Shown in pieces: positions 2,660 through 38,077 of a DNA stretch of 64,000 nucleotides. Position 1 is the stretch's first letter, and each line of letters opens with the position of its first letter. Both the position numbers and the translations under genes were made by a program. The DNA is from Candidatus Poribacteria bacterium. GTDB taxonomy: Bacteria; Poribacteria; WGA-4E; B28-G17. The stretch is taken from NCBI GenBank assembly GCA_021162805.1, contig JAGGXZ010000185.1, positions 3,064 to 67,063 of the forward strand, given 5' to 3'. The notes beneath the pieces were generated by a model, which was given only the letters and a program-made list of their open reading frames with translations, was not told where the DNA came from and did no database searches.

Positions 2660-4006
2660 CTATTCCCTCTTTTTGATCCCGTATCTCTTCATCTTTCTCC
2701 AGAGGGTCGGTCTGCTGATGCCCAGGATATTCGCGGCCTCGCCTATACGCCATCCCGTTTCCTCCAAAACTCTGATGATAACGGCTCTCTCGGCAGCCTC
2801 AAGGGGGTTCTCCCCTGGCTGCAGGTTGAAAAAGGGGGCTATTCCGGGGAACGAATCGCCTTTTCTGATCTCCAAGGGAAGGTGCTCCGGCATTATGAGA
2901 TCCCCGCGGCAGTGGACGAAGGCATGTTCGATGGCGTTCTCAAGCTCCCTCACGTTACCAGGCCAGTTATAGCGCAGGATCAGATCCATCGCCTGTTGTG
3001 ATATCCCCTCGATCTGTTTGCCGAACTCTCCATTAAACCTGTCGATGAAGAACCTCACCAGCAGCGGTATATCCTCGCGTCTTTCTCTAAGAGGGGGCAC
3101 TTCGATGGAGATCACGTTCAGCCGATAGAAGAGATCCTCCCTGAACCTACCCGCTTTCACCTCCTCGCGCAGATCTTTATTCGTCGCGGCGATGATGCGC
3201 ACATCTACCTTTATGGTCTTTGTTCCTCCGATCCTCTCGAACTCCTTATCCTCTATGGCGCGCAGAAGCTTTGCCTGGACGTGGGTGGGTATCTCGGTTA
3301 TCTCGTCGAGAAATATCGTGCCTCCATCTGCCAGCTCAAACCTGCCGGGTTTATCCGCCACCGCCCCCGTGAATGCCCCTTTAACATGTCCGAAGAGCTC
3401 GCTCTCCAGCAACGGCTCCGGCAAAGCTGCGCAGTTGACGGTCACAAACGGACCATCTGCCCGATGGCTGTTGAGATGGATCGCCCGGGCGATCACACCC
3501 TTCCCCGTTCCGGTCTCGCCCTGGATCAGAACTGTCACATCGTTTTCGGCGAGCATCTCTATCTGTTCGAATATCTCCTGCATCCTACGGGATTTGCCTA
3601 TGAGCTGGCCGAACTGATACCTCTCCTGAAGCTCCATCTCCAGCCATTTGAGCTGCGATATATCCCTGAACGTCTCCACCGCCCCCATAATACCTCCATC
3701 GTCGTCTATGAGTATTGAGGCGCTCACGCTGACCGGTATCTGGATCCCATCCTTTCGGGTGATAATCACCTCATAGTTGGTCACCGGCTCTCCCGTTTCA
3801 AGCGCCCGACGTATCGCACAGTCATAATCGCATACGTTGGTTCTGAACACCTCCCTGCACACCCTGCCTATGGCCTCCTCGGCTGAAAATCCGGTTATCC
3901 TTTCGGCGGCCTTATTGAAAAGCTCTATCCGCCAATCGGTGTTTATGGTGAAAACGCCATCGGCTATATTGTCGAGTATCAGCTCGAACTTTCTCCTGTC
4001 ATCCAT
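2660..4006 (-). CDS. Sigma-54-dependent transcriptional activator (PAS sensor + AAA+ sigma-54 interaction domain + Fis-type HTH)
   Basis: Walker [22 protein letters not shown] motif, C-terminal HTH ([15 protein letters not shown]), N-terminal PAS-like region. Confidence 0.8.
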
Positions 4007-5393: not shown

Positions 5394-6758
5394 GTGATCA
5401 ACATAAGCGGGGTCATCTCCCCGCTCTCAGTCAAGGCCGATCTGCTGCCCGCCCGAAGCGAATGCGGAATAGGGGCTCTCATGCCATGGGCCGGCAGGCT
5501 CTGGATGATTACGTACGTCTCACACAAATCAAGCAGCGGTTCCGGAACGGGACTTTATGAGATAGACGAGAGCTTCACCCTGAGAAAGCGACCTGAAAGC
5601 GTGGTCGGCACCTACGCCAACCGCATGATCCATCCCCAATCCAGCCAACTTATAATCGGACCACACATCATAGATGTCGACGGCAACGTCCGAACGATCG
5701 AAGATATCAAGGAACACCGCCTCACGGCGACCATGGAGCATCTGGAAGATCCGGAGAACAAAGTCTACTTCCTGACGATGGAAGGGCTGATGTTGGAGGT
5801 CGATCTAAACACGCTGCGGGCGAGGGAGCTCTTCGATCTGACGAAGGAACTTGAGATACCCGAAAATGCTAAGCCCCATTTTAAGGGAGGATACACGGGG
5901 AGCGGCAGGGTGGTCGTGGCCAATAACACATACGATGAGCCGGACTTCCTGGGCGAACGTGAGGCGGGACGTCTGGCGGAATGGGATGGTAAGGTGTGGA
6001 GGATCATCGAGAGAAAACCCTTCAACGAGGTAACGGGTCGGCGGAATATGGGTCAGGTGATCTTCGCCACGGGATGGGACAAAGCGTCGGCTATCCTGAA
6101 GGTCTTCGCAAAAGGGAGGTGGCAAACCTATCGTCTGCCGAAGGCCAGCCATTGTTTCGACCATTACTGGCAGACCGAGTGGCCGCGGATTCGGGAGGTC
6201 GAAAGCGAGAGATATCTGATGGATTGTCACGGCATGTTCTACGAGCTCTCCCCCGTGGCGTATGACGGTAAGATATGGGGGATTAGACCCATTTCGACCC
6301 ATCTGCGTATCATCCCGGATTTCTGCTCGTGGAGGGGATTCCTTGTGTTGGGCGGAAACCAGGTAACCCCCATCGGAGACGCCAATCTCCTGGCGGGCGA
6401 GCCTCAGGCCAATCTCTGGTTCGGTAAGACCGACGATCTGTGGCAGTTCGGAAAACCTAAAGGCTGGGGAGGGGTGTGGTGGCAGGATCAAGTATCAGCT
6501 TGGGAACCGTCCGATCCATATCTGATGATGGGATTCGAGGGAAAGGTGTTACATCTGTGGCACGATAACGATCGTCCCGTGGAGTTCACCGTGGAGGTTG
6601 ATCCGCTGGGGAATCAGAGCTGGAAGGTTTACGATGTGTTCCGCGTTCCGCCCGGTGGATACCTACACCATGAGCTTCCGATGGGTTTCAGCGCCCATTG
6701 GGTGAGAGTCAGAACGGATACCACCTGTAAAGCCACGGCTTATTTCATTTACACGTAA
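5394..6758 (+). CDS. Hypothetical protein (454 aa), no recognised family by eye
   Basis: Long uninterrupted ORF with GTG start; Trp-rich; codon usage consistent with neighbours. Confidence 0.45.
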   Translation: MINISGVISPLSVKADLLPARSECGIGALMPWAGRLWMITYVSHKSSSGSGTGLYEIDESFTLRKRPESVVGTYANRMIHPQSSQLIIGPHIIDVDGNVRTIEDIKEHRLTATMEHLEDPENKVYFLTMEGLMLEVDLNTLRARELFDLTKELEIPENAKPHFKGGYTGSGRVVVANNTYDEPDFLGEREAGRLAEWDGKVWRIIERKPFNEVTGRRNMGQVIFATGWDKASAILKVFAKGRWQTYRLPKASHCFDHYWQTEWPRIREVESERYLMDCHGMFYELSPVAYDGKIWGIRPISTHLRIIPDFCSWRGFLVLGGNQVTPIGDANLLAGEPQANLWFGKTDDLWQFGKPKGWGGVWWQDQVSAWEPSDPYLMMGFEGKVLHLWHDNDRPVEFTVEVDPLGNQSWKVYDVFRVPPGGYLHHELPMGFSAHWVRVRTDTTCKATAYFIYT

Positions 6759-6786
6759 TTCCCTGTCTTAGAATGGGGTTTACACA

Positions 6787-7911
6787 TTGAATGAGGACCA
6801 TCTCAACAGATTAAGAAGCATGGCCGAGAAATACGGCGACTTATTGGCAAAGCAAAAGGGTGTATTGGGCGTTGTTATCTCAGGGAGTTTAGCGAGGGGA
6901 GACGTTTGGGAAGGAAGTGATGTGGATCTACATGTTTTATGGAGATCTAAGGGATGTTTCTCCTCCGTGGGTGGGTTTTTGGAAGGCGTGTTGATCAATG
7001 TGCATGATGTATGGGTGGATATGATGGAAGCTATCGTAGAAGATATAGATTGCTTCTGTAGGAGCGATCTACCAGATCAGCTTTATGGATGCAGGATCCT
7101 CTATGACCCTTATGGCTTGTGGAATCGATATAAGGCCTTCATTGATTCCAAGCGATTTGACCCGAAAATCATAGCATGTAAGGTGAGCTGTTACGTCGAG
7201 AAAGCAATGAAATTACTTGCTAAGGCTGAGGAATCTTTCAGATTAAAAGATTGGGCGTCCTCTGTATTCTATGCGCAGAGGGCAGCGATCGAAACTGCTT
7301 TCGGTATCACCGTCAAATGTGGAGATTTGATACGGAGTGCTAATCGGTTCCCCGAAAACTTAAAGGCTCTTACGGAGCGAAATGGATTAGAAGAGCTATA
7401 TAAGCTATTCCGGTCGGTTCACGGATTGACAGGACGGATTGAGGAGGTAGAAAAAGTCATAACTGCCTGTGAAATAGCCCCTAAGAAATTCATCGAGGAA
7501 CTCGATAGGATAGGTATCTCAATGGGAACTGCGAGATGTATTTTGGGAGACAAACCTATCGATGAAGCGCTGAGATATAAGGAGATCTCCGAGTTGCTTA
7601 TCAAAAGAAACCTGCGTTCCTGGGTTGCTGTCAAATACGGTTATTATAATGGACAGATCATATGGATGAGAACCAACAGATGGATGGTAATACCATTATG
7701 GGCTTCACGACTCAGGATGATATGCGGGGCTGATCGAATAAACCTGGATTCATCAACCATTGCAGAGGATATGCGCCGATTTCCCAGGGCTTCGGATGTT
7801 TTTTATAACCTCTTCCTCGATTTTCTCTGCCTATCGAACCCAGAATCTAAGCTTGCCTGGGAGCGAATTCACGCTGTATCTGAAATGATCTCATCGCTTA
7901 GTCATTCGTAA
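6787..7911 (+). CDS. Nucleotidyltransferase-fold protein (pol-beta superfamily NTase domain plus about 250 aa helical C-terminal region)
   Basis: GS-X9-DVD signature GSLARGDVWEGSDVDLHVLW; region visibly more AT-rich than flanks. Confidence 0.55.
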   Translation: MNEDHLNRLRSMAEKYGDLLAKQKGVLGVVISGSLARGDVWEGSDVDLHVLWRSKGCFSSVGGFLEGVLINVHDVWVDMMEAIVEDIDCFCRSDLPDQLYGCRILYDPYGLWNRYKAFIDSKRFDPKIIACKVSCYVEKAMKLLAKAEESFRLKDWASSVFYAQRAAIETAFGITVKCGDLIRSANRFPENLKALTERNGLEELYKLFRSVHGLTGRIEEVEKVITACEIAPKKFIEELDRIGISMGTARCILGDKPIDEALRYKEISELLIKRNLRSWVAVKYGYYNGQIIWMRTNRWMVIPLWASRLRMICGADRINLDSSTIAEDMRRFPRASDVFYNLFLDFLCLSNPESKLAWERIHAVSEMISSLSHS

Positions 7912-7935
7912 TTACATTAAGCAGAGAGGTAAACC

Positions 7936-9405
7936 ATGTCTCAACCAAATGTTCTTCTCATATTCACCGATCAACAACGGGCCGATACCATTCAAGCGGC
8001 TGGAAATCCGATCATAAAGACGCCCCACCTGGATCGTCTGGTCGCCGAAGGGGTGCTTTTCAAAAGCGCCTACACCCCATCGCCCGTATGTGTGTCGGCC
8101 CGATGTTCGCTTATTTACGGCCTCTATCCCCATAACACGGGGTGTTTCGACAACGGTTATCCGATGCCCGATGATAGACCCAGCCTGATGGAGTTGCTCT
8201 CCAGGGCGGGCTATCGGACGCACGGCATCGGCAAGATGCACTTCACACCCGATTCCCACGCCTTACGCGGGTTTCAAACGCGCGAGCATCAGGAGGAGAT
8301 GCGTGCTCGGGTTGAGGATGACGATTACCTGAAGTTCCTCCACGCGAACGGCTTCGATCACGTATACGATCCCTTCGGCCAGAGGGGTGAGATGTACTAC
8401 ATCCCTCAGCCGGCACAGATGCCGGCAAGGCTTCACGGCACCAATTGGGTCGGCGATAGAGCCGTGGAGTTCATCCGCAATGCGGATAGATCCCGACCCT
8501 TCTTCCTCTGGGCGAGCTTCATTCACCCCCATCCACCCTTCTCGCCTCCGACTCCCTGGAACAAGCTGTATCGGGCAGCGCTGATGCCGCTGCCAAAGCG
8601 TCCCGACGGCTTTGAGACGCTTCACACCTACATGAATAGATACCAAAATCGGTACAAATACCGCGATAACGGGATAGATAACAACCTCCTCAGGGTGATG
8701 AAGGCCTACTACTACGCCTGTATCTCCTTCATCGATTTCCAGATAGGAAGGATACTTGAGGCTTTGGAGGAGACAGACCGGCTTGAGAACACCATGATCA
8801 TCTTCACATCGGATCACGGCGAGTTTCTGGGCGATTACAACTGCTTCGGCAAGCGGAGCATGCTAGACGCGGCGGCAAGGGTGCCGATGATCGTTCGATA
8901 TCCGGAGCGGTTCGCCCGAGGATACATCTGCGAAACGCCGACAAGCTTGGTTGATATCATGCCGACCATACTGGCCGCAGCGGGAATAGATCCTAAGGAT
9001 CATAACCTCGACGGGGTGGATCTGGCCGAGGCCGTAGGATACGATGACAGGACGATCTACAGCCAGTACCAGCGGGGCCCCCTAGGCGTCTACATGATCC
9101 TGAACCGACGATGGAAGTACTTCTACTCCGCTCCCGATCGAAGGGAGTTCCTCTTCGATAGAATACACGACCCGGAGGAGACCAGGAACAGGGCGGGGCT
9201 CAGCCTATGTAGGCGGGAGCAGGAGGAGATGAGAGGGGAATTGATCGGATTTTATAAGGAGCAGGGTTATACCGAACCCATAGAGGGCGATCGGTGGAAG
9301 CTGTTCCCACAGCCATCCATACCGGTAAACCCGGACGCCGGGCTTCTAATTCAAGACCCCGGATGGTCGCTGCGATATCAGAGGATACCGGGGTATACGG
9401 ACTAA
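7936..9405 (+). CDS. Sulfatase-family protein (non-canonical active-site motif C-V-S-A-R)
   Basis: LLIFTDQQRADT N-terminus, sulfatase fold hallmarks; motif PVCVSARCSLIYGLYPHNTG aligns to the C-x-P-x-R FGly site but lacks Pro. Confidence 0.7.
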   Translation: MSQPNVLLIFTDQQRADTIQAAGNPIIKTPHLDRLVAEGVLFKSAYTPSPVCVSARCSLIYGLYPHNTGCFDNGYPMPDDRPSLMELLSRAGYRTHGIGKMHFTPDSHALRGFQTREHQEEMRARVEDDDYLKFLHANGFDHVYDPFGQRGEMYYIPQPAQMPARLHGTNWVGDRAVEFIRNADRSRPFFLWASFIHPHPPFSPPTPWNKLYRAALMPLPKRPDGFETLHTYMNRYQNRYKYRDNGIDNNLLRVMKAYYYACISFIDFQIGRILEALEETDRLENTMIIFTSDHGEFLGDYNCFGKRSMLDAAARVPMIVRYPERFARGYICETPTSLVDIMPTILAAAGIDPKDHNLDGVDLAEAVGYDDRTIYSQYQRGPLGVYMILNRRWKYFYSAPDRREFLFDRIHDPEETRNRAGLSLCRREQEEMRGELIGFYKEQGYTEPIEGDRWKLFPQPSIPVNPDAGLLIQDPGWSLRYQRIPGYTD

Positions 9406-29374: not shown

Positions 29375-29403
29375 TTGCCAATCAGGGAGGTATTTGTTAT
29401 ATT
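29375..29403 (+). promoter_or_regulatory. Putative sigma-70-type promoter TTGCCA-17-TATATT for the rpsB operon
   Basis: Read directly; about 145 bp upstream of rpsB ATG; leader also contains GGATAACCGCTA 12-mer. Confidence 0.35.
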
Positions 29404-29547
29404 TTCTTAAGCCCCCCGATCACATAAACCATCAAACACACCCCTATCTGCGCGGCGGTGCCCTTTGGGGGCGAGGGTTTTGTGCAGGCGGAGAGGGGTG
29501 GAAGGATAACCGCTAGTAAGGAGGTTTTGAAATTGTTTAACGTCACG

Positions 29548-30459
29548 ATGAAGCAGCTTCTGGAAGCAGGAATGCACTTCGGGCATCAGACCAGGCGTTG
29601 GAATCCGAAGATGGCCCGATACATCTTCACGGAGCGGAACGGCATCTACATCATCGATCTGCAAAAAACCCTCCGGATGATGAAGATCGCCTATGACTTC
29701 CTCCAAGAGCTGGCCGCCCAGGGCGGTAAGGTTCTCTTCGTCGGCACCAAGAAACAGGCCCAGGATTCGGTTAAGGAACAGGCCGAAAGGTGCGGGATGT
29801 ACTACGTCAATCAGAGATGGCTCGGAGGGATGTTGACCAACTTTCAAACCATTCGCAGAAGCATCGATAGATTGCTGGAGCTGGAACGAATGGAAGAGGA
29901 AGGGACCTTCGAGAAGCTCCCTAAGAAAGAGGTGGTTAAACTCCAGCGCGAGAAGGAGAAACTAGAGAGAAATCTGGGTGGCATCAAAACCATGGAAAAG
30001 CTTCCCGATGCCGTGCTGATCGTCGATACCCGAAGCGAGAGGATAGCCGTTGCCGAGGCCAACAAACTCGGCATTCCGATCGTCGCCGTGGTCGATACGA
30101 ACTGTGACCCGGATCTGATCGACTATCCTATACCCGGCAACGACGATGCGATACGATCGATCAGGCTTTTCTGTACGCTCATGGCCGATGCCATCCTGGA
30201 AGGCAAGGGTGAGCTGATGGAAGGGGAACTGGTGGAGGAAGGTGCTGAGACACCTGCTGAGGTCAAAGCTGAAACCGAAACGCCTGAACCTGAAGAAGAA
30301 ATGACAGGCGGGGAGGAAGCTGAGGAGGAGAAAACTGAAACTGAGGAGGTAGCCGAAGAATCGGTCGAGGAAGATCAAGGAGAGGACGTTCAGGAAGATG
30401 TTCAAGAGGAAGTCCAAGAAGAGGTCCAAGATCAAAACGACCAGGAGGAGGTAGCATAG
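29548..30459 (+). CDS. rpsB: 30S ribosomal protein S2 with about 85 aa acidic low-complexity C-terminal extension
   Basis: [22 protein letters not shown] canonical S2 N-terminus; SD aaggagg; tail [16 protein letters not shown]. Confidence 0.9.
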
Positions 30460-31068
30460 ATGCAGGTCACCGCCGAAATGGTCAAATCCCTCAGGGAGAA
30501 AACTGGCGCTGGAATAATGGACTGCAAAAAGGCGCTCCAGGAGACAAACGGCGATATGGAAGCCGCCGTAGAATGGCTCAGACGCAAGGGGATAAGCACG
30601 TATGATAAGAGAAAACACAGAGCGGCTTCGGAAGGCGTCATAGCCTCCTATATTCACGCCGGTAGTAAGATCGGGGTGCTCCTGGAGCTTAACTGCGAGA
30701 CGGACTTCGTCGCCAGGACCGATATCTTCCAGCAACTGGCCAAGGACGTGGCGATGCAGATCGCCGCAACTGATCCCAAATACATCAGTAAGGAGGACGT
30801 TCCTCCCGAGGTGGTCGAGAGGGAAAAGGAGATCCTCCGTGAGCAGGCCCTCAACGAAGGCAGACCTGAGAGGGTGATCGATAGAATCGTTGAGGGAAGG
30901 CTCGAGAAGTTCTTCACCGAGGCCTGCCTGCTGGAGCAACCCTTCATCAAGGATGACAGCAAAACGGTTGGAGAACTGGTCAAAGAGGTCTCCGCCAAAG
31001 TAGGCGAAAACATCGTCGTCAGAAGATTCACCAGATATGTCCTCGGCCGATCGGATGACTCAGATTAA
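30460..31068 (+). CDS. tsf: Elongation factor Ts (short form)
   Basis: VKSLREKTGAGIMDCKKALQE UBA-like N-terminus; immediately follows rpsB stop. Confidence 0.85.
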   Translation: MQVTAEMVKSLREKTGAGIMDCKKALQETNGDMEAAVEWLRRKGISTYDKRKHRAASEGVIASYIHAGSKIGVLLELNCETDFVARTDIFQQLAKDVAMQIAATDPKYISKEDVPPEVVEREKEILREQALNEGRPERVIDRIVEGRLEKFFTEACLLEQPFIKDDSKTVGELVKEVSAKVGENIVVRRFTRYVLGRSDDSD

Positions 31069-31780
31069 ACCCGTCTACAAGAGGGTGATATTGGAGCTGA
31101 GCGGTGAGATGTTTCGGGGGGAGCCTCCCGGGGGAGAACCGATAGATTTCTCCTTCCTGGGGGGGCTCTCCCGAAAGCTGATTCAGATCCGGAATATGGG
31201 CGTTCAGCTCGGAGTGGTCGTCGGCGGCGGGAACATCTGGCGCGGAGCGGAGCACGGAGAGCTGGATCGGGTCACATCCGATCAGATCGGGATGCTCGCC
31301 ACCGTCATCAACGCTCTTACCCTTGGCGGGATGCTCAGGAAGTTGGGTTGTAGCGCTTTTGTCTTCAGCGCCATCAGCATAAACAGGGTGGCCGAGAGCC
31401 CCTCGCATCTGGAGCTGATGAAAAGGATGGAACGAGGTGAGATCGTCATCTTCGCCGGCGGCACCGGAAACCCCTTTTTCACCACGGACACTGGCGCTGT
31501 TCTCAGGGCGTTGGAGGTGAAAGCTGACGCCGTGCTTAAAGGCACAAAGGTCGATGGCTTATATTCAGACGATCCTTTCGAAAACCCAAATGCCGTCAGA
31601 TACTCTGAACTGACCTGCGATGATGCGCTGAATTTGAAAGCCGGCGTCATGGATCTGACAGCGTTCGCTCTCTGCAGGGGCAAGGAGCTTGAAATAGTGA
31701 TCTTCAAGCTTCTTCCTCTCGATAACATGATCGAAGTCATCCTTGGACATCCCATAGGAACCAGAATAAGGGGGAAATAA
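31055..31780 (+). CDS. pyrH: UMP kinase
   Basis: [12 protein letters not shown] ... [11 protein letters not shown] motifs. Confidence 0.85.
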
Positions 31781-31781
31781 A

Positions 31782-32354
31782 ATGGCTGACGAGAGAAGTT
31801 TGAAGGCTCTGCTTAAAGATACTGAAGCGAGGATGAAGAAGGCAGTTGAGGCAACCTCCAAGGAGTTCGCCACCATAAGGGCCGGAAGGGCCTCGCCGAC
31901 CATGCTCGAGGGGATTCAGGTCGATTACTACGGAAGCAGATTACCCGTCAATCAACTTGCAACCATCTCCATCCCCGAGCCGCGCGTGATATTGATCCAA
32001 CCCTGGGATAAAAACGCCATTAAAGATATCGAGAAGGCGATATCTCAATCCGATCTCGGATTTAACGTGCTGAGCGATAAGAACGTCATAAGGTTGGTTC
32101 TCCCTGAGGTCACCGAGGAGAGAAGAAAGGAGCTGGTCAAGGTCGTTCGCAGGATCGCCGAGGAGGGCAGAGTGGCCGTTCGTAACATCAGGCGGGACGC
32201 TATAGAGAAGCTGAGGAAGATGGAAAAAGACGGTGAGATCTCCGAGGACGATAGCAGAAGATATCAAAACGAGGTGCAGAAACTCACCGATAAATACGTC
32301 GATCAGATCAACGAACACTTGGAGAACAAGGAGAAGGAGTTACTTGAAGTCTGA
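31782..32354 (+). CDS. frr: Ribosome recycling factor
   Basis: Canonical RRF sequence ([14 protein letters not shown]...). Confidence 0.9.
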
Positions 32355-33105
32355 AAGGGATCTGAGCGAACTTTCGGTCGAGGAGCTGAAAGCTCTTCTC
32401 GACCCCGACAACCTTCCCAGGCATATCGCCATCATAATGGACGGCAACGGCAGGTGGGCTCAGAAACGCCACCTGCCGAGAACTGAAGGACATAAGGCCG
32501 CTGTTCAGTCCGTCAGGGATGTTGTCGAGATATGCGGTGAGATCGGAATAGAGGCGCTCACGCTCTATTCCTTCTCGACCGAAAACTGGAAACGCCCCAG
32601 ATCTGAGATCAGGGTGTTGATGGCCATTCTTAGAGAGCAGCTCAGGAGGGAGAGGAGGGAACTCGACCGCAATAACGTTCAGGTCAGAGCTATAGGCGAT
32701 ATAGAGAATCTGCCCCCCGATGTGCTGGACGAGCTTGAAAAGACGATCGAACAAACCAAGGATAACACGGGGTTGAAGCTGGTCCTGGCCCTCAATTACG
32801 GCGGGAGAAAGGAGATCACGCGCGCCGCCAGGATGATAGCCGATAAGGTCAAATCGGGCCGGCTGAGCCCCGATGAGATCGATGAGGATCTCATCTCAGA
32901 TCATCTCTACACCTCCGACCTTCCGGATCCCGATCTGCTCATAAGGACGAGCGGTGAGATGCGGGTGAGCAATTTTCTGCTCTGGCAGATCGCATATACG
33001 GAGCTCTACATAACGCCGGTGTTGTGGCCCGATTTCCGGAAGCGGCATCTGCTTGAGGCGGTAATAGATTATCAGAGACGTGAAAGGAGATTCGGTGGTA
33101 TCTGA
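32342..33105 (+). CDS. uppS: Undecaprenyl-diphosphate synthase (isoprenyl transferase); start codon uncertain (TTG overlapping frr stop proposed)
   Basis: [13 protein letters not shown], ...[11 protein letters not shown] motifs. Confidence 0.75.
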
Positions 33106-33893
33106 TGCTTAGAAGAATCCTGAGTGCTTTCCTGTTCGTTCCGATCATCCTCGCTTTATCCCTTCATCCGATTTCGTTTACGGCCCTTTCGTGTGTCATA
33201 ACCGTTATGATCTATCTGGAGTTTGTAAGGATAGGTCGAAACCTGGGGGTATGGTTTCCAGAACCCATTGGTGTGTTGACCGTGGGGATAATGCCGATAC
33301 TGGCCTATCTCAGTCTGAACCCTATGCCCTTCCTGATCGGGGCGATCCTGTTGATCTCTCTTTTCAATGTGGTCCATCGAAAGGGTGAAGGAGCTCTGCT
33401 TTCGCTTTCCTCTGCCGTTTTCGGCCTCATATACATCGGCTGGATGTATGGGTTTCACCTGGTGGAGCTCAGGATGATGGATGAAGGGCTGAAACTCATA
33501 TTGTTGCTTTTGGCCGTGATATGGCTGGGGGACACGGGAGCGTATTTCACTGGCAGGGCGATCGGCAGACATAAGCTCATCCCTGCCGTTAGCCCTGGCA
33601 AGACGATCGAGGGATCGATAGGCGGTCTGATATGGGGGATGGGAGGGGCAGTGGCGGTTAAATACATCTTCAACTTAGACCTGCTGTCGCTTCCCCATCT
33701 TATCTCTCTCAGCTTGGTGATGGGGATAACAGGGCAGATAGGGGATCTGACGGAATCCATCATAAAGAGAAACGCGGGGATAAAGGATTCGGGAAACCTC
33801 ATTCCGGGACACGGCGGCATGTTCGATCGATGCGACAGCATGATCCCGGCCGTTCCCGTTATGATTATCTACCTGAGGATGTTTCAAGCATGA
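33105..33893 (+). CDS. cdsA: Phosphatidate cytidylyltransferase
   Basis: LGDTGAYFTGRAIGRHKL...PGKTIEGSIGG motif; ATGA overlap with uppS stop. Confidence 0.8.
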   Translation: MLRRILSAFLFVPIILALSLHPISFTALSCVITVMIYLEFVRIGRNLGVWFPEPIGVLTVGIMPILAYLSLNPMPFLIGAILLISLFNVVHRKGEGALLSLSSAVFGLIYIGWMYGFHLVELRMMDEGLKLILLLLAVIWLGDTGAYFTGRAIGRHKLIPAVSPGKTIEGSIGGLIWGMGGAVAVKYIFNLDLLSLPHLISLSLVMGITGQIGDLTESIIKRNAGIKDSGNLIPGHGGMFDRCDSMIPAVPVMIIYLRMFQA

Positions 33894-34741
33894 GCGTTAT
33901 GATGAAAACCTTTCATAAGATCTATATCGGCAACTCCCGAAAAATGACGGAAGTTCCTGATCAATTCGTTCACTGTGTGGTAACCAGTCCACCCTACGTA
34001 ACTACCAAGATGGAAAAGGGGCAGGAGTTCGATTATAACTCATATCGGGATATGATCCGCGATGTCTTTCAGGAGGTATGGCGAGTTCTGATACCAGATG
34101 GGCGATTTTGTCTCAATGTAGCCGACATCCGGACGAAATATTTCTATAAGGAAAATAATCTCTATCGAGCGCCTATATCCAGTGACCTCCTGATGCTCTG
34201 TCACGAGATCGGATTTCGGCTGCTCGATGTCTTCATCTGGGATAAGGGATTTAACCGGAACTTCGGCGGACCGCTTTTAGGTTCTTATCTCTATCCGGCT
34301 ACAATCTATAATAACGTCTACTTTGAATATATCTTCATCTTGAAAAAGCCCGGCAAACGTCAGGTTGATCCGGCAATTAAAGAGGCCAGCAGGATTGACA
34401 AGCACACCTGGAAGGAGTATGTTCAGCGCATCTGGCGCGTGGAAACGGAGACGGAATGGTTTGAAGGTCACGAGGCGGTTTTCCCTGAGGAGATACCCAG
34501 AAGGCTAATTCGCATGTATTCCTTCGTGGGCGATACGATCCTTGACCCTTTCCTGGGATCGGGGACGACGACGCTAGCTGCTATGAACTTAGGTCGTAAC
34601 AGCATAGGTTATGAAATCAACGAAAAGCTGATACCGGTGATCAAAAGAAGATTAGGAATAGATCAACCCCTTTTGATAACCGGAGGAGCTGAGATCGAGA
34701 TTACATTTGCGAGATATCGAGACCGCGAGGTTATGGAGTGA
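33890..34741 (+). CDS. DNA methyltransferase, N4-cytosine/N6-adenine (beta-class, PF01555-like)
   Basis: VVTSPPY motif IV near N-terminus, FxGxG-like motif near C-terminus (DPFLGSGTT); start overlaps cdsA stop (ATGA). Confidence 0.7.
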   Translation: MSVMMKTFHKIYIGNSRKMTEVPDQFVHCVVTSPPYVTTKMEKGQEFDYNSYRDMIRDVFQEVWRVLIPDGRFCLNVADIRTKYFYKENNLYRAPISSDLLMLCHEIGFRLLDVFIWDKGFNRNFGGPLLGSYLYPATIYNNVYFEYIFILKKPGKRQVDPAIKEASRIDKHTWKEYVQRIWRVETETEWFEGHEAVFPEEIPRRLIRMYSFVGDTILDPFLGSGTTTLAAMNLGRNSIGYEINEKLIPVIKRRLGIDQPLLITGGAEIEITFARYRDREVME

Positions 34742-34745
34742 TTCC

Positions 34746-35594
34746 ATGTCAGATCGAATAACGTTGGAAGAATTGCTTGAGCAGATCGAGCGAATCCCCG
34801 CAGAGTGGTTAAACGACATAGGACGCAAGGTTATCGATGCCATTCCTAAAATAATCGGACGAATAAACCGTTCTCCGTTGGACCAATCGACTATTACGAC
34901 GCTATTAGAGGAAGAGACTTACGCATTGGATGTCTTTCGACTATTCTTGGATCTCTCTCAGGACGCCATCGCTAATGAGATTAACGCCAGGGGGATCAGA
35001 GGAGACTTCGCCTCAATCCGAAGCAAATGTAGCCGTCATGCTGACGAGATCGCAGAAGCACTCGTAGCCTTGGGATTGATAGACACGATAGAAGCCCATC
35101 GAGCTCGCGATTGGAAACTGCAAGATATTTTACTGGAACGCTATAAACACATGCGCGGCCATGCTATTCGTGGCCAACGGCGAGGCGCTGCCATTGAAGA
35201 TGCTGTAGAGGATATTCTTAAGGGTCTCCAACATGAGATCGGTATATCTTATGACTCCAAAGCGAATTTCATCAGTAGATTCGGCGAAGAGGCTAAAGCT
35301 GATTTTATGATTCCCTCTCGTTTTGAACCTCAAATCATAATTGAAGTAAAAGGGTATGAAGCAACGGGTAGCAAGCTTACCGACGTGCTTGGGGATATCC
35401 TCAAGATATTGAAGGCTAAAGATCCGGAAACGCATTTCTTCCTCGTGACTGACGGAATCGGGTGGTATCGACAATTAAGCGACCTGCGTCACATCGTAGC
35501 GTATCATCATAGTGGAGAAATTGAGATGATCTACACGAGAAAAACGCTTTTAAATTTGAAAGATAGAATCAGACAGATTATCAAAGGGGAATGA
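34746..35594 (+). CDS. Putative type II restriction endonuclease (PD-(D/E)XK nuclease) partner of the methyltransferase
   Basis: C-terminal ADFMIPSRFEPQIIIEVKG fits D-Xn-E-V-K; positioned directly after MTase, stop overlaps dxr ATG. Confidence 0.4.
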   Translation: MSDRITLEELLEQIERIPAEWLNDIGRKVIDAIPKIIGRINRSPLDQSTITTLLEEETYALDVFRLFLDLSQDAIANEINARGIRGDFASIRSKCSRHADEIAEALVALGLIDTIEAHRARDWKLQDILLERYKHMRGHAIRGQRRGAAIEDAVEDILKGLQHEIGISYDSKANFISRFGEEAKADFMIPSRFEPQIIIEVKGYEATGSKLTDVLGDILKILKAKDPETHFFLVTDGIGWYRQLSDLRHIVAYHHSGEIEMIYTRKTLLNLKDRIRQIIKGE

Positions 35595-36745
35595 AGGGAA
35601 TCGCCATTTTAGGTTCAACGGGATCAATTGGGAGAAACGCCCTTCAGGTGATCGAGTCGCTTCCGGACGAGTTAAAAGCGGTTGGGCTTGCCGCCAGACG
35701 CAGTGTGGAGACGATAACCGAACAGGCTCTGAGGTTCCAGGTCAAGGCGATCGCTCTTTCAGATGAAGCGGCGGCTCAAAGGGCGTCTCAGATGCTGGAG
35801 GGGACAGGCATTAAAGTATTCAGCGGACAAGAAGGCGTTTTAAGGATAGCGGTGATGGATGAGGCCGATATGGTGGTCTCATCCATGGTCGGCATCTCAG
35901 GTTTATTGCCGACGCTTGAGGCCATCCGCAACGGTAAGGACGTCGCCTTCGCCAATAAGGAGGTATTGGTGGCTGGAGGTGAGATCGTCATGAGGGAAAT
36001 CGAGAGATACGGCGTTAACTTTCTTCCCGTCGATAGCGAGATAAGCGCCATATTCCAATGCCTACAGGGTAGATCGAGGGATGAGGTCAAAAGGTTGATC
36101 CTCACCGCATCAGGAGGTCCGTTCAAAGGGTTTTCACCACGCGAGCTTGAAGGTGTAACCGTCTCACAGGCTCTCAGACATCCAAACTGGAGGATGGGAT
36201 CTAAGGTCACGATAGATTCAGCCACGCTGATGAACAAGGGATTTGAGGTGATCGAATCGATGTGGCTGTTCGGGATGGAGCTTGAGAGGATAGATGTGGT
36301 CGTGCATCCCCAAAGCATCGTCCACTCGATGGTCGAACTCGTGGACGGCTCCATCATAGCCCAGCTGGGCGTACCCGACATGCGAACTCCGATCCAATAT
36401 GCCCTCACCTATCCCAGAAGAACGCCTGCCCCTGACAGATATCTGAACCTGGTGGAGGTGGGAACTTTGACGTTTGAGCCCGTGGATATGAAGGCATTCC
36501 CGTGTCTGGGATATGCATACGAGGCGGCGAGGATAGGCGGCAGCATGCCGGCCGTCATGAGCGCTGCCGATGAGGTGGCGGTCGCCGCCTTCATAGACGG
36601 AAGGATCAAATTCACCGATATACCGAAGCTCATAAAGAGGGTCATGGATGCCCATGAACCTGTTTTCTCCCCGTCGCTCGATGACCTCCTGGAGGCGGAT
36701 AGATGGGGGAGGGAGACGGCGGAGAAGATAATCGAGGAGGGATGA
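35591..36745 (+). CDS. dxr: 1-deoxy-D-xylulose-5-phosphate reductoisomerase
   Basis: MKGIAILGSTGSIGRNALQVI canonical N-terminus. Confidence 0.9.
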   Translation: MKGIAILGSTGSIGRNALQVIESLPDELKAVGLAARRSVETITEQALRFQVKAIALSDEAAAQRASQMLEGTGIKVFSGQEGVLRIAVMDEADMVVSSMVGISGLLPTLEAIRNGKDVAFANKEVLVAGGEIVMREIERYGVNFLPVDSEISAIFQCLQGRSRDEVKRLILTASGGPFKGFSPRELEGVTVSQALRHPNWRMGSKVTIDSATLMNKGFEVIESMWLFGMELERIDVVVHPQSIVHSMVELVDGSIIAQLGVPDMRTPIQYALTYPRRTPAPDRYLNLVEVGTLTFEPVDMKAFPCLGYAYEAARIGGSMPAVMSAADEVAVAAFIDGRIKFTDIPKLIKRVMDAHEPVFSPSLDDLLEADRWGRETAEKIIEEG

Positions 36746-36751
36746 GAGAGG

Positions 36752-38077
36752 ATGGTATGGCTTTCTAACCTTTACGTATTCGTCGTGGCCGTTATATCGC
36801 TCGGGTTCATAATCTTCATCCATGAGCTCGGCCACTTTATAGCCGCCAAGCGATCGGGCGTTAAGGTCGAGAGGTTCTCGCTCGGATTCGGCCCGAGGCT
36901 GTTTGGATTGGTAAGGGATGGGACAGACTATTGCATCTCGCTTCTGCCTTTCGGCGGATACGTCAAGATGAAGGGCGAAGGGCCGGGCAAGGACATGAAG
37001 GTGAACGAGGATCCGGATTCCTTCGCGGCAGCCTCCATCGGTAAACGCATGTTCATAGCCATCTCCGGACCGGCCATGAACGTGCTGCTCGGGATATTGG
37101 CCTTTTCGCTCGTCTATATGATCGGCATGCCTCAGACGAACCAGAGCACGCAGATAGGATACGTCCTACCTGATTCCCCGGCCGAAAAAGCAGGGCTTAG
37201 ACCCGGGGATGTGATACTCGCCATAAATGGCGAGAAAACCTCAAGCTGGGATGAAGTCAGGGAGAATATCCTCGTCCATCCAGGGGAGGAGATAACTTTA
37301 AAGGTGCGCCGTGGGGAAAAAGTGCTCACCCTCAGGGCTGTCCCAGAGGAGTTTAAGCAGGAGAAGATGGGCAAGGTGGGTAAATTGGGGATCGTCCAGG
37401 TGATAGATCCGGTCGTCCGAAAGGTTCAGCCTGGAAGCCCCGCCTCCGAGCTCGGCATCCGGCCCGGAGACAGGATCATCTCCGTCAACGGAAGGCCTAT
37501 CACACATTTCATGGAGATCATCACTGAGGCCGAGAGAAACCCAAGTGAACCGATCAGGCTCGGGGTTGAGCGAGATGGAAGGAGGTTCACCGTAAGCCTG
37601 AAGCTGGAATTCGACGAGAACGGAGAGGTAAAGGATCTGGGAGGGATGTTCTTCGGAAGCGAGATCAAGCTGATCAGATATGATCCCATACGTGCGATCG
37701 GCGCGGGGATCAAACAGAGCGTCCTGACGGTGGATAAAACACTTGTCGTGCTGAAAAAACTTATACTACATGAGATCTCACCCAGATATGTAAGCGGTCC
37801 GCTTGGGATCATCGAGATAACCGCCAGCGTTTTCAGAGTTGGGTTTTCAGGATTCCTCTTCGTATTGGGATTCATAAGCATCAACATCGCCATCATTAAC
37901 CTCCTCCCTATCCCCATAGCCGACGGCGGACAGATCCTCTTCTTCGCCGTTGAGAAGGTGAGAGGCAAACCGCTCAGCCCCAAGAAGCAGCTCATCATAC
38001 AGCAGGCCAGCATATTGTTCCTTATAATCCTGTTCATCCTCGTCACGTGGAACGACATCCTCAGGATGATAAGCTGA
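36752..38077 (+). CDS. rseP: RIP metalloprotease RseP (site-2 protease) with PDZ domains
   Basis: HELGHFIAAK zinc motif, two PDZ-like segments, C-terminal LDG motif region. Confidence 0.85.
   Translation: MVWLSNLYVFVVAVISLGFIIFIHELGHFIAAKRSGVKVERFSLGFGPRLFGLVRDGTDYCISLLPFGGYVKMKGEGPGKDMKVNEDPDSFAAASIGKRMFIAISGPAMNVLLGILAFSLVYMIGMPQTNQSTQIGYVLPDSPAEKAGLRPGDVILAINGEKTSSWDEVRENILVHPGEEITLKVRRGEKVLTLRAVPEEFKQEKMGKVGKLGIVQVIDPVVRKVQPGSPASELGIRPGDRIISVNGRPITHFMEIITEAERNPSEPIRLGVERDGRRFTVSLKLEFDENGEVKDLGGMFFGSEIKLIRYDPIRAIGAGIKQSVLTVDKTLVVLKKLILHEISPRYVSGPLGIIEITASVFRVGFSGFLFVLGFISINIAIINLLPIPIADGGQILFFAVEKVRGKPLSPKKQLIIQQASILFLIILFILVTWNDILRMIS

Follow-up and report, generated by a model that had tools for sequence, protein, structure and literature searches.

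A gene pair encoding a predicted N4-cytosine DNA methyltransferase (MTase) and a DpnII-family restriction endonuclease (REase) was located between cdsA and dxr, inside the rpsB-rseP housekeeping cluster of a Candidatus Poribacteria bacterium. The stretch of DNA analysed (hereafter the window) comprises 64,000 nucleotides (nt) of contig JAGGXZ010000185.1 (assembly GCA_021162805.1, positions 3,064 to 67,063, forward strand). The pair is probably a horizontally acquired, functional Type II restriction-modification (R-M) system that entered this lineage by a single illegitimate insertion, 7 nt upstream of the ATGA tetranucleotide in which the stop codon of cdsA overlapped the start codon of dxr. 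The case provides a natural example, resolved to the base pair and with filled alleles, empty alleles and an outgroup at hand, of a defence or selfish gene pair entering an essential operon that stayed unbroken, and it bears on the movement of R-M systems without mobility genes, on their fixation and on the tolerance of operons to foreign genes.

Filled and empty alleles of the cdsA-dxr junction

The organism of the window is known from metagenomes only, and contigs identical to the window were present in several metagenomes. Loci for comparison came from Dxr-based scans of species-representative genomes and of metagenomes (four loci each). In the window, the genes rpsB-tsf-pyrH-frr-uppS-cdsA, the MTase and REase genes, dxr and rseP form an operon-like run (29533..38077, + strand; open reading frame (ORF) list and called genes), which lies on one strand throughout and in which every intergenic gap is at most 6 nt. 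Both genes that flank the insert are close-packed on the same strand and undamaged: cdsA (33105..33893, +) is full length and carries a complete Pfam domain (PF01148, E-value 1.4e−59), while dxr (35591..36745, +), followed by rseP (36752..38077, +), is full length with three Pfam domains of 1-deoxy-D-xylulose 5-phosphate (DXP) reductoisomerase.

An earlier note, made from the letters of this stretch, had placed the pair exactly between two genes that are normally neighbours, and three of three empty alleles agree with this. They comprise an uncultured metagenome-assembled genome (MAG; L012) with flanking genes 95.5–98.8% identical to the window at the nt level, a metagenome contig resembling it (L023, ~96% nt identity to the window), and a Guaymas Poribacteria MAG (L013, ~72% nt identity). 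Taken together, the flanks of L012 and L023 showed 95.6–97.5% identity to the window. In each of them cdsA and dxr adjoin through an ATGA overlap with no pair between, and the flanks are otherwise collinear.

By aligning the junctions with L012 and L013, the inserted DNA was delimited to ~1.7 kb (33884..35587, +), with breakpoints good to a few nt. On the left, host homology with L012 runs through ...CTGA(G/A)GAT(G/A)TT and ends at ~33883, and on the right it restarts at GGAATGAAGGG, 35588 (begins GGAATGA). Both host pieces are contiguous in the empty allele, where TT is directly followed by GGAATGA, which places an insertion of ~1,704 bp at 7 nt ahead of the cdsA stop, with no host bases lost or duplicated at the insertion site. 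The insert consists of a leader of ~15 nt, the MTase gene, a 4-nt spacer and the REase gene minus its own stop codon. No direct or inverted repeats bracketing 33884-35587 were found, the ATGA tetranucleotide alone recurring. Two known classes of insertion, with long target duplications (~100 bp repeats) and transposon-like, were ruled out by this lack of flanking repeats.

The event rewrote three or four C-terminal codons of cdsA: the encoded tail reads IYLRMFQA* in the window vs. IYLKILE* in the empty allele, and the new stop comes from the insert. At the other end, the last two REase codons, GAA TGA, are the former terminal codons of cdsA; since the REase frame runs into these old codons, the stop of the REase is the ancestral cdsA stop, the one in overlap with the start of dxr. 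The dxr ATG thus overlaps the REase stop (ATGA at 35591-35594) just as it overlaps the cdsA stop in the empty alleles, and the native coupling geometry for dxr is preserved by this re-used stop/start overlap. On the left, ATGA at 33890-33893 joins the cdsA stop to the earliest MTase ATG, while an alternative ATG at 33899 or 33902 would leave a gap of 5–8 nt after the cdsA stop and no overlap; the cdsA/MTase junction is tight under either start. Of the two outer ATGA overlaps described previously, that between REase and dxr hence stands, and that between cdsA and MTase holds for the ATG at 33890 and becomes doubtful if translation begins at 33899 or 33902.

A second carrier lineage (L004-L007 and L022), with flanks 93–96% identical to the window (94.5% as a single figure), has the same junctions. 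One of its members, L007, was considered as a second insertion context and rejected, since its locus proved to be this one too, with another start called.

Composition, selection and recombination around the insert

The impression that the insert is more AT-rich than its surroundings was confirmed by gene-wise values. GC content is 0.464 in the MTase and 0.452 in the REase gene vs. 0.51–0.55 in eight flanking genes, and GC content at third codon positions (GC3) is 0.54 and 0.46, respectively, vs. 0.63–0.69 in the same eight genes; the host values are 0.53 (GC) and 0.65 (GC3), compared with a GC of 0.46 for the insert. When the 50 non-overlapping long ORFs of the window were ranked by GC3, the MTase was third-lowest (z = −2.4) and the REase lowest (z = −4.3). 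The composition of the insert is foreign to the host, and this, together with the empty sites, upholds the earlier proposal that the genes were acquired horizontally and are not ancient residents.

Synonymous divergence (pS) and the ratio of nonsynonymous to synonymous divergence (pN/pS) were obtained between the window and the L004 carrier lineage. The REase has a pS of 0.127 and a pN/pS of 0.08, the MTase a pS of 0.033 and a pN/pS of 0.14, and the flanking genes range from 0.13 to 0.23 (pS) and from 0.02 to 0.14 (pN/pS). Purifying selection is evident for both genes in this comparison of carriers, and as the pS of the REase is similar to that of the flanking genes, the insert has been kept intact for approximately as long as the carrier lineages have diverged. 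The MTase is far less diverged between the carriers than the adjacent REase or the flanks, a difference that could stem from a recent conversion or recombination tract limited to the MTase, or from chance.

The kinship of the three ~95%-identical lineages across 30460-38077 of the window is mosaic: on the upstream side of the insert it is the window that comes nearest to the empty L012, and on the downstream side it is L004, the second carrier, that does so. This pattern fits a shuffling of filled and empty alleles by homologous recombination within a population of ~95% average nucleotide identity (ANI). In cdsA, the density of sites that the two filled alleles have in common is about double that further upstream, and in dxr the first two variable positions are common to them as well; the recombination-breakpoint signal next to the insert is weak.

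The methyltransferase and the endonuclease

The MTase gene (33890..34741, +) encodes 283 amino acids (aa), or 279–280 aa if the start is 33899 or 33902. Its description as a beta-class N4/N6 DNA methyltransferase with an SPPY motif was sustained: the protein matches PF01555 (N6_N4_Mtase, E-value 3.2e−43) and the PADLOC model MTase_II (Type II, E-value 2e−66), and motif IV (TSPPY, residues ~31-35) precedes motif I (DPFLGSGTT, FxGxG at ~220-226), which is the beta-class order. Its best relative of solved structure is the putative methylase TTHA0409 of Thermus thermophilus HB8 (PDB 2zie, E-value 1e−40, residues 8-260; also 2zif and 2zig), with which it shares TSPPY, FxGxG and the motif order. No recognition site is given in the literature searched on TTHA0409, which is therefore uninformative on the target here. 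The next-ranked structures are N4-cytosine enzymes, namely rotifer N4CMT (8s9n, 8s9m) and M.PvuII (1boo), and adenine methyltransferase structures align over the C-terminal S-adenosylmethionine-binding part only. The SPPY of N4CMT has been contrasted with the DPPY of the adenine enzyme CcrM (PMC10406627). Because of the SPPY motif, and because N4-cytosine MTases outrank adenine MTases among the structures, the enzyme probably modifies cytosine N4 rather than adenine N6.

Between the MTase stop (34741) and the REase ATG (34746) there are 4 nt (34742..34745, +), as had been read from the sequence before, and a Shine-Dalgarno-like GGAG lies within the 3′ end of the MTase gene, 7 nt ahead of this ATG. 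The REase gene (34746..35594, +) encodes a type II restriction endonuclease of the DpnII family; the ORF had already been taken for a nuclease, correctly, and given a length of 283 aa, which its coordinates reduce to 282 aa. The protein matches PF04556 (DpnII) with an E-value of 1.4e−13 and 51.3 bits vs. a cut-off of 23 (profile positions 50-260 of 278), and it is also matched by the PADLOC model REase_II. Among the matches listed, PF04556 was found in all full or near-full length homologues (120/120). The D...E-V-K pattern pointed out in the earlier note lies in a catalytic-type motif, K184-x-D186 ... E200-V-K202. Across 35 homologues (37–70% identity), K184, D186, F187, E200 and K202 are invariant, together with an EATGSK run and a TDG motif, and at the sequence level the pattern is a conserved PD-(D/E)XK-type motif.

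As a sequence search of solved structures with the REase gave none (best E-value 0.4, an irrelevant protein), structure prediction and Foldseek were applied. The AlphaFold2 model, built on the alignment of the 35 homologues, reached a mean predicted local distance difference test (pLDDT) score of 87.9, and its best matches in the PDB were BstEII (E-value 1e−4), Can2 nuclease, PspGI and EcoT38I, all of them PD-(D/E)XK enzymes. The TM-scores are modest (0.28–0.45), so the model supports this fold class and not any specific relationship. Profile matches and predicted fold thus both favour the nuclease assignment made for the second ORF.

The same cassette in other genomes

REase homologues of 59–70% identity always have an SPPY MTase (73–81% identical) directly upstream, 3–24 nt apart, and the MTase-then-REase pair was found in seven other contexts. 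In L008, for instance, the cassette is flanked by rmuC and a gene for a PfkB kinase; in L016 (4146-5885) it precedes the co-oriented rpsL-rpsG-fusA by 463 nt; in L017, from an archaeon, its neighbour is the gene of the PolD small subunit; and in L027 it adjoins HicA-like genes. The L025 copy occupies a defence/mobile island that also carries a transposase, a Shedu-like gene and a helix-turn-helix (HTH) gene. The L016 cassette has its own leader with a promoter-like TTGACG-17-TATAAT. A further copy (L026, 3165-4837; REase 63% identical) sits in a same-strand cluster with heterodisulfide-reductase (Hdr)-like/ferredoxin genes on one side and a flavin adenine dinucleotide (FAD)-binding oxidoreductase gene on the other, with spacers of 24–103 nt, and may have arisen by a second insertion of this kind, independent of the first, into operon-like surroundings. 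The GC content of the cassette departs from that of the local flanks in most of the loci. The cassette is mobile, to judge by its presence in unrelated bacterial and archaeal contexts, a defence island included.

In L025, an HTH_17/MerR-like gene (2672-3148), possibly encoding a C-protein-like controller, overlaps the MTase start by 8 nt; the operon-embedded copy of the cassette lacks it.

Predicted target site

More distant REase relatives (26–44% identity) are paired otherwise, with Dam-type adenine MTases (L019, L020 and Rhizobium plasmids) or, in one case on a Staphylococcus plasmid, in the canonical arrangement of Dam, DpnA-like MTase and REase. Going by these Dam-type pairings and the three-gene arrangement typical of DpnII, the target of the system is probably GATC or a related site. 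Site avoidance was evaluated as the Markov-corrected ratio of observed to expected counts (O/E) for all palindromic 4-mers and 6-mers, 64 kb being too little to assign a target. The depleted palindromes of the window are CAGCTG (4 vs. 20.8, O/E 0.19), GTAC (51 vs. 102, 0.5), CGCG (129 vs. 229) and GGATCC (16 vs. 32, 0.5), and other R-M systems of the host may lie behind their depletion.

Expression and maintenance of the embedded pair

The sole candidate promoter ahead of the cluster is a sigma-70-like match (29375..29403, +; consensus match only) in the 164-nt gap upstream of rpsB. The insert contains no recognisable promoter, terminator, repeat or mobility gene and almost no non-coding DNA, and no convincing terminator was found in or around it. 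Lacking a recognisable promoter and terminator, it is most likely part of the rpsB-rseP housekeeping transcript. Following a single illegitimate insertion of ~1.7 kb before the overlapping cdsA stop and dxr start, the MTase and the REase would be transcribed within this transcript by read-through from the rpsB-proximal promoter, and read-through of both genes would be required because dxr and rseP downstream must be transcribed. The MTase would be translated by termination-reinitiation after cdsA, the REase either from its own GGAG or coupled to the MTase across the 4-nt gap, and dxr through the ancestral stop/start overlap, now shared with the REase; the ATGA overlaps would in this way cause translational coupling.

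The MTase would shield the chromosome while the REase would cut unmodified incoming DNA, and the pair would thereby serve for defence and addiction, like any ordinary Type II module. Both cdsA and dxr are essential in model bacteria. An imprecise deletion of the pair would be expected to harm cdsA or dxr, or their expression, so that its loss would need a precise replacement by the empty allele, which post-segregational killing by the R-M system would in turn oppose. Such killing is known for several Type II systems, in which residual REase cuts under-methylated DNA after gene loss (reviewed in PMC2993543). It is a plausible inference that embedding between essential genes strengthens this stabilisation.

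A more far-reaching and rather doubtful extension is an 'operon-hitchhiking' lifestyle, in which the cassette would not just have survived a random insertion by chance: a promoter-less R-M unit enters the last codons of an essential gene without breaking the frame, borrows its stop/start overlap so that the essential gene downstream stays coupled, has its expression slaved to a growth-rate-regulated housekeeping transcript, can be removed only by precise allelic replacement, and spreads between ~95%-ANI lineages by recombination of the filled allele. Spread of the filled allele by homologous recombination is hinted at by the mosaic flanks. If this were true generally, selfish defence genes would land preferentially, and almost irreversibly, at overlapped stop/start junctions within essential operons.

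Contrary evidence and alternative explanations

A number of results speak against the insertion, enzyme activities and expression proposed here. The alignment of homologues prefers an MTase start (M-M-K-T-F) 9–12 nt past the ATGA overlap, and one gene call in L007 picked the downstream start. In the NCBIfam search no equivalog model passed the cut-off for the MTase, and the REase had no match. GATC is not avoided in the 64-kb window (658 sites, Markov-corrected O/E 0.91), its count being ~2.6 times the 1/256 expectation though near the Markov expectation; being frequent and not avoided, it leaves the predicted target without support from k-mer statistics. The specificity may also differ from GATC, because SPPY suggests N4-methylcytosine (m4C) while canonical DpnII-family systems use N6-methyladenine (m6A). 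By flank similarity, the two carrier lineages are not grouped to the exclusion of the empty L012, and given the mosaic flanks a simple single-gain tree does not fit without recombination. Finally, a promoter-like TTGACA-17-TATGTT inside the MTase gene (34395..34423, +; consensus match) could give the REase independent transcription, or be a chance match.

The last point could be extended to a cassette that expresses itself, with this internal promoter at 34395-34423 serving the REase, cryptic promoters in cdsA serving the MTase, and the overlaps being incidental packing. In many Type II systems the R gene is driven from a promoter within the M gene, and the L016 cassette has an upstream non-coding region with promoter-like sequence. 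The promoter scan, however, stayed below its shuffled controls (3 sites vs. 7.6 expected), so the matches are not significant, and the embedded copy has no non-coding DNA upstream of the MTase. Moreover, dxr and rseP need transcription through the insert, and with no terminator found read-through is unavoidable. We thus consider self-expression unlikely and prefer read-through from the housekeeping transcript.

Somewhat less probable still is an REase that is inactive or repurposed, next to an MTase that works alone, in an epigenetic or regulatory role, and is expressed along with the housekeeping operon. It could be hazardous to make a nuclease constitutively from an operon that is highly expressed, and the MTase is more conserved between the carriers than the REase (pS 0.033 and 0.127). 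Against this, every carrier contig encodes a full-length REase, all invariant residues of the family are kept (D186, E200 and K202 included), and the REase pN/pS of 0.08 is a signature of continued selection for function; the possibility, raised beforehand, that the MTase is an orphan is accordingly not borne out, as its REase is intact.

That the pair are ancient residents of the operon and that L012, L023 and L013 lost them by deletion is very improbable, even though the grouping of the carriers relative to L012 would favour it, since deletion would have to recreate the exact ATGA overlap of cdsA and dxr that is also seen in the 72%-identical outgroup, the GC and GC3 of the insert are strong outliers, the cassette is present in unrelated genomes and contexts, archaea included, and homologous recombination of alleles within the ~95%-ANI population accounts better for the mosaic flanks.

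Relation to known R-M systems

DpnII, MboI and LlaDCHI are Type II R-M systems that act on GATC and have a PF04556 endonuclease. The pair described here resembles them in its PF04556 REase, in the PD-(D/E)XK-type motif and in the gene order, with the MTase gene(s) first and the REase a few nt later; a PF01555 MTase is also found in the canonical three-gene DpnII systems, as the second (DpnA-like) MTase. Unlike them, it has no Dam-type (PF02086) MTase and relies on a single MTase with SPPY instead of DPPY. This MTase resembles TTHA0409 most and DpnA-type chains only remotely, and the REase is 26–35% identical to plasmid-borne members of the DpnII family. DpnII-family REases that are paired with one SPPY beta-class MTase form a clade widespread among bacteria and archaea, and this clade appears uncharacterised in specificity and methylation chemistry.

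R-M gene complexes inserted into operon-like gene clusters were reported previously by Kobayashi and co-workers (Ishikawa et al. 2010, PMC2993543; Furuta et al. 2010, PMC2853133), and such insertions often span translation start/stop sites while the target genes are left intact (Furuta et al. 2010, PMC2853133). The layout is as the earlier note described it, and the unusualness of an R-M pair embedded in an operon is tempered by these documented cases (PMC2993543, PMC2853133). The general phenomenon is already in the literature, and the present case fits the class and overturns nothing. In common with this class, a Type II unit with no linked mobility gene lies between same-strand genes of a cluster, was recognised through an empty site in a close relative, occupies a stop/start boundary and leaves its targets intact. 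It has neither flanking repeats nor the target duplication of ~100 bp that marks the best-known subclass. What sets this case apart is that the insertion falls within the final two codons of an essential gene, that the overlapping stop and start codons of the host are re-used in frame, and that the host cluster is the near-universal rpsB-rseP housekeeping cluster.

Other observations in the window

Apart from the insert, one further ORF (6787-7911, +; 374 aa) is as aberrant in composition as the R-M genes (GC 0.445, GC3 0.468). It lies within a same-strand run (5394-9405), encodes an N-terminal nucleotidyltransferase domain (Polbeta/NTP_transf_2) and may be a second horizontally acquired gene. 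At the start of the housekeeping cluster, the 3′ end of rpsB (about 30200-30459) encodes a long, acidic and repetitive C-terminal extension of ribosomal protein S2, the length of which varies between strains (15 nt of gaps vs. L004).

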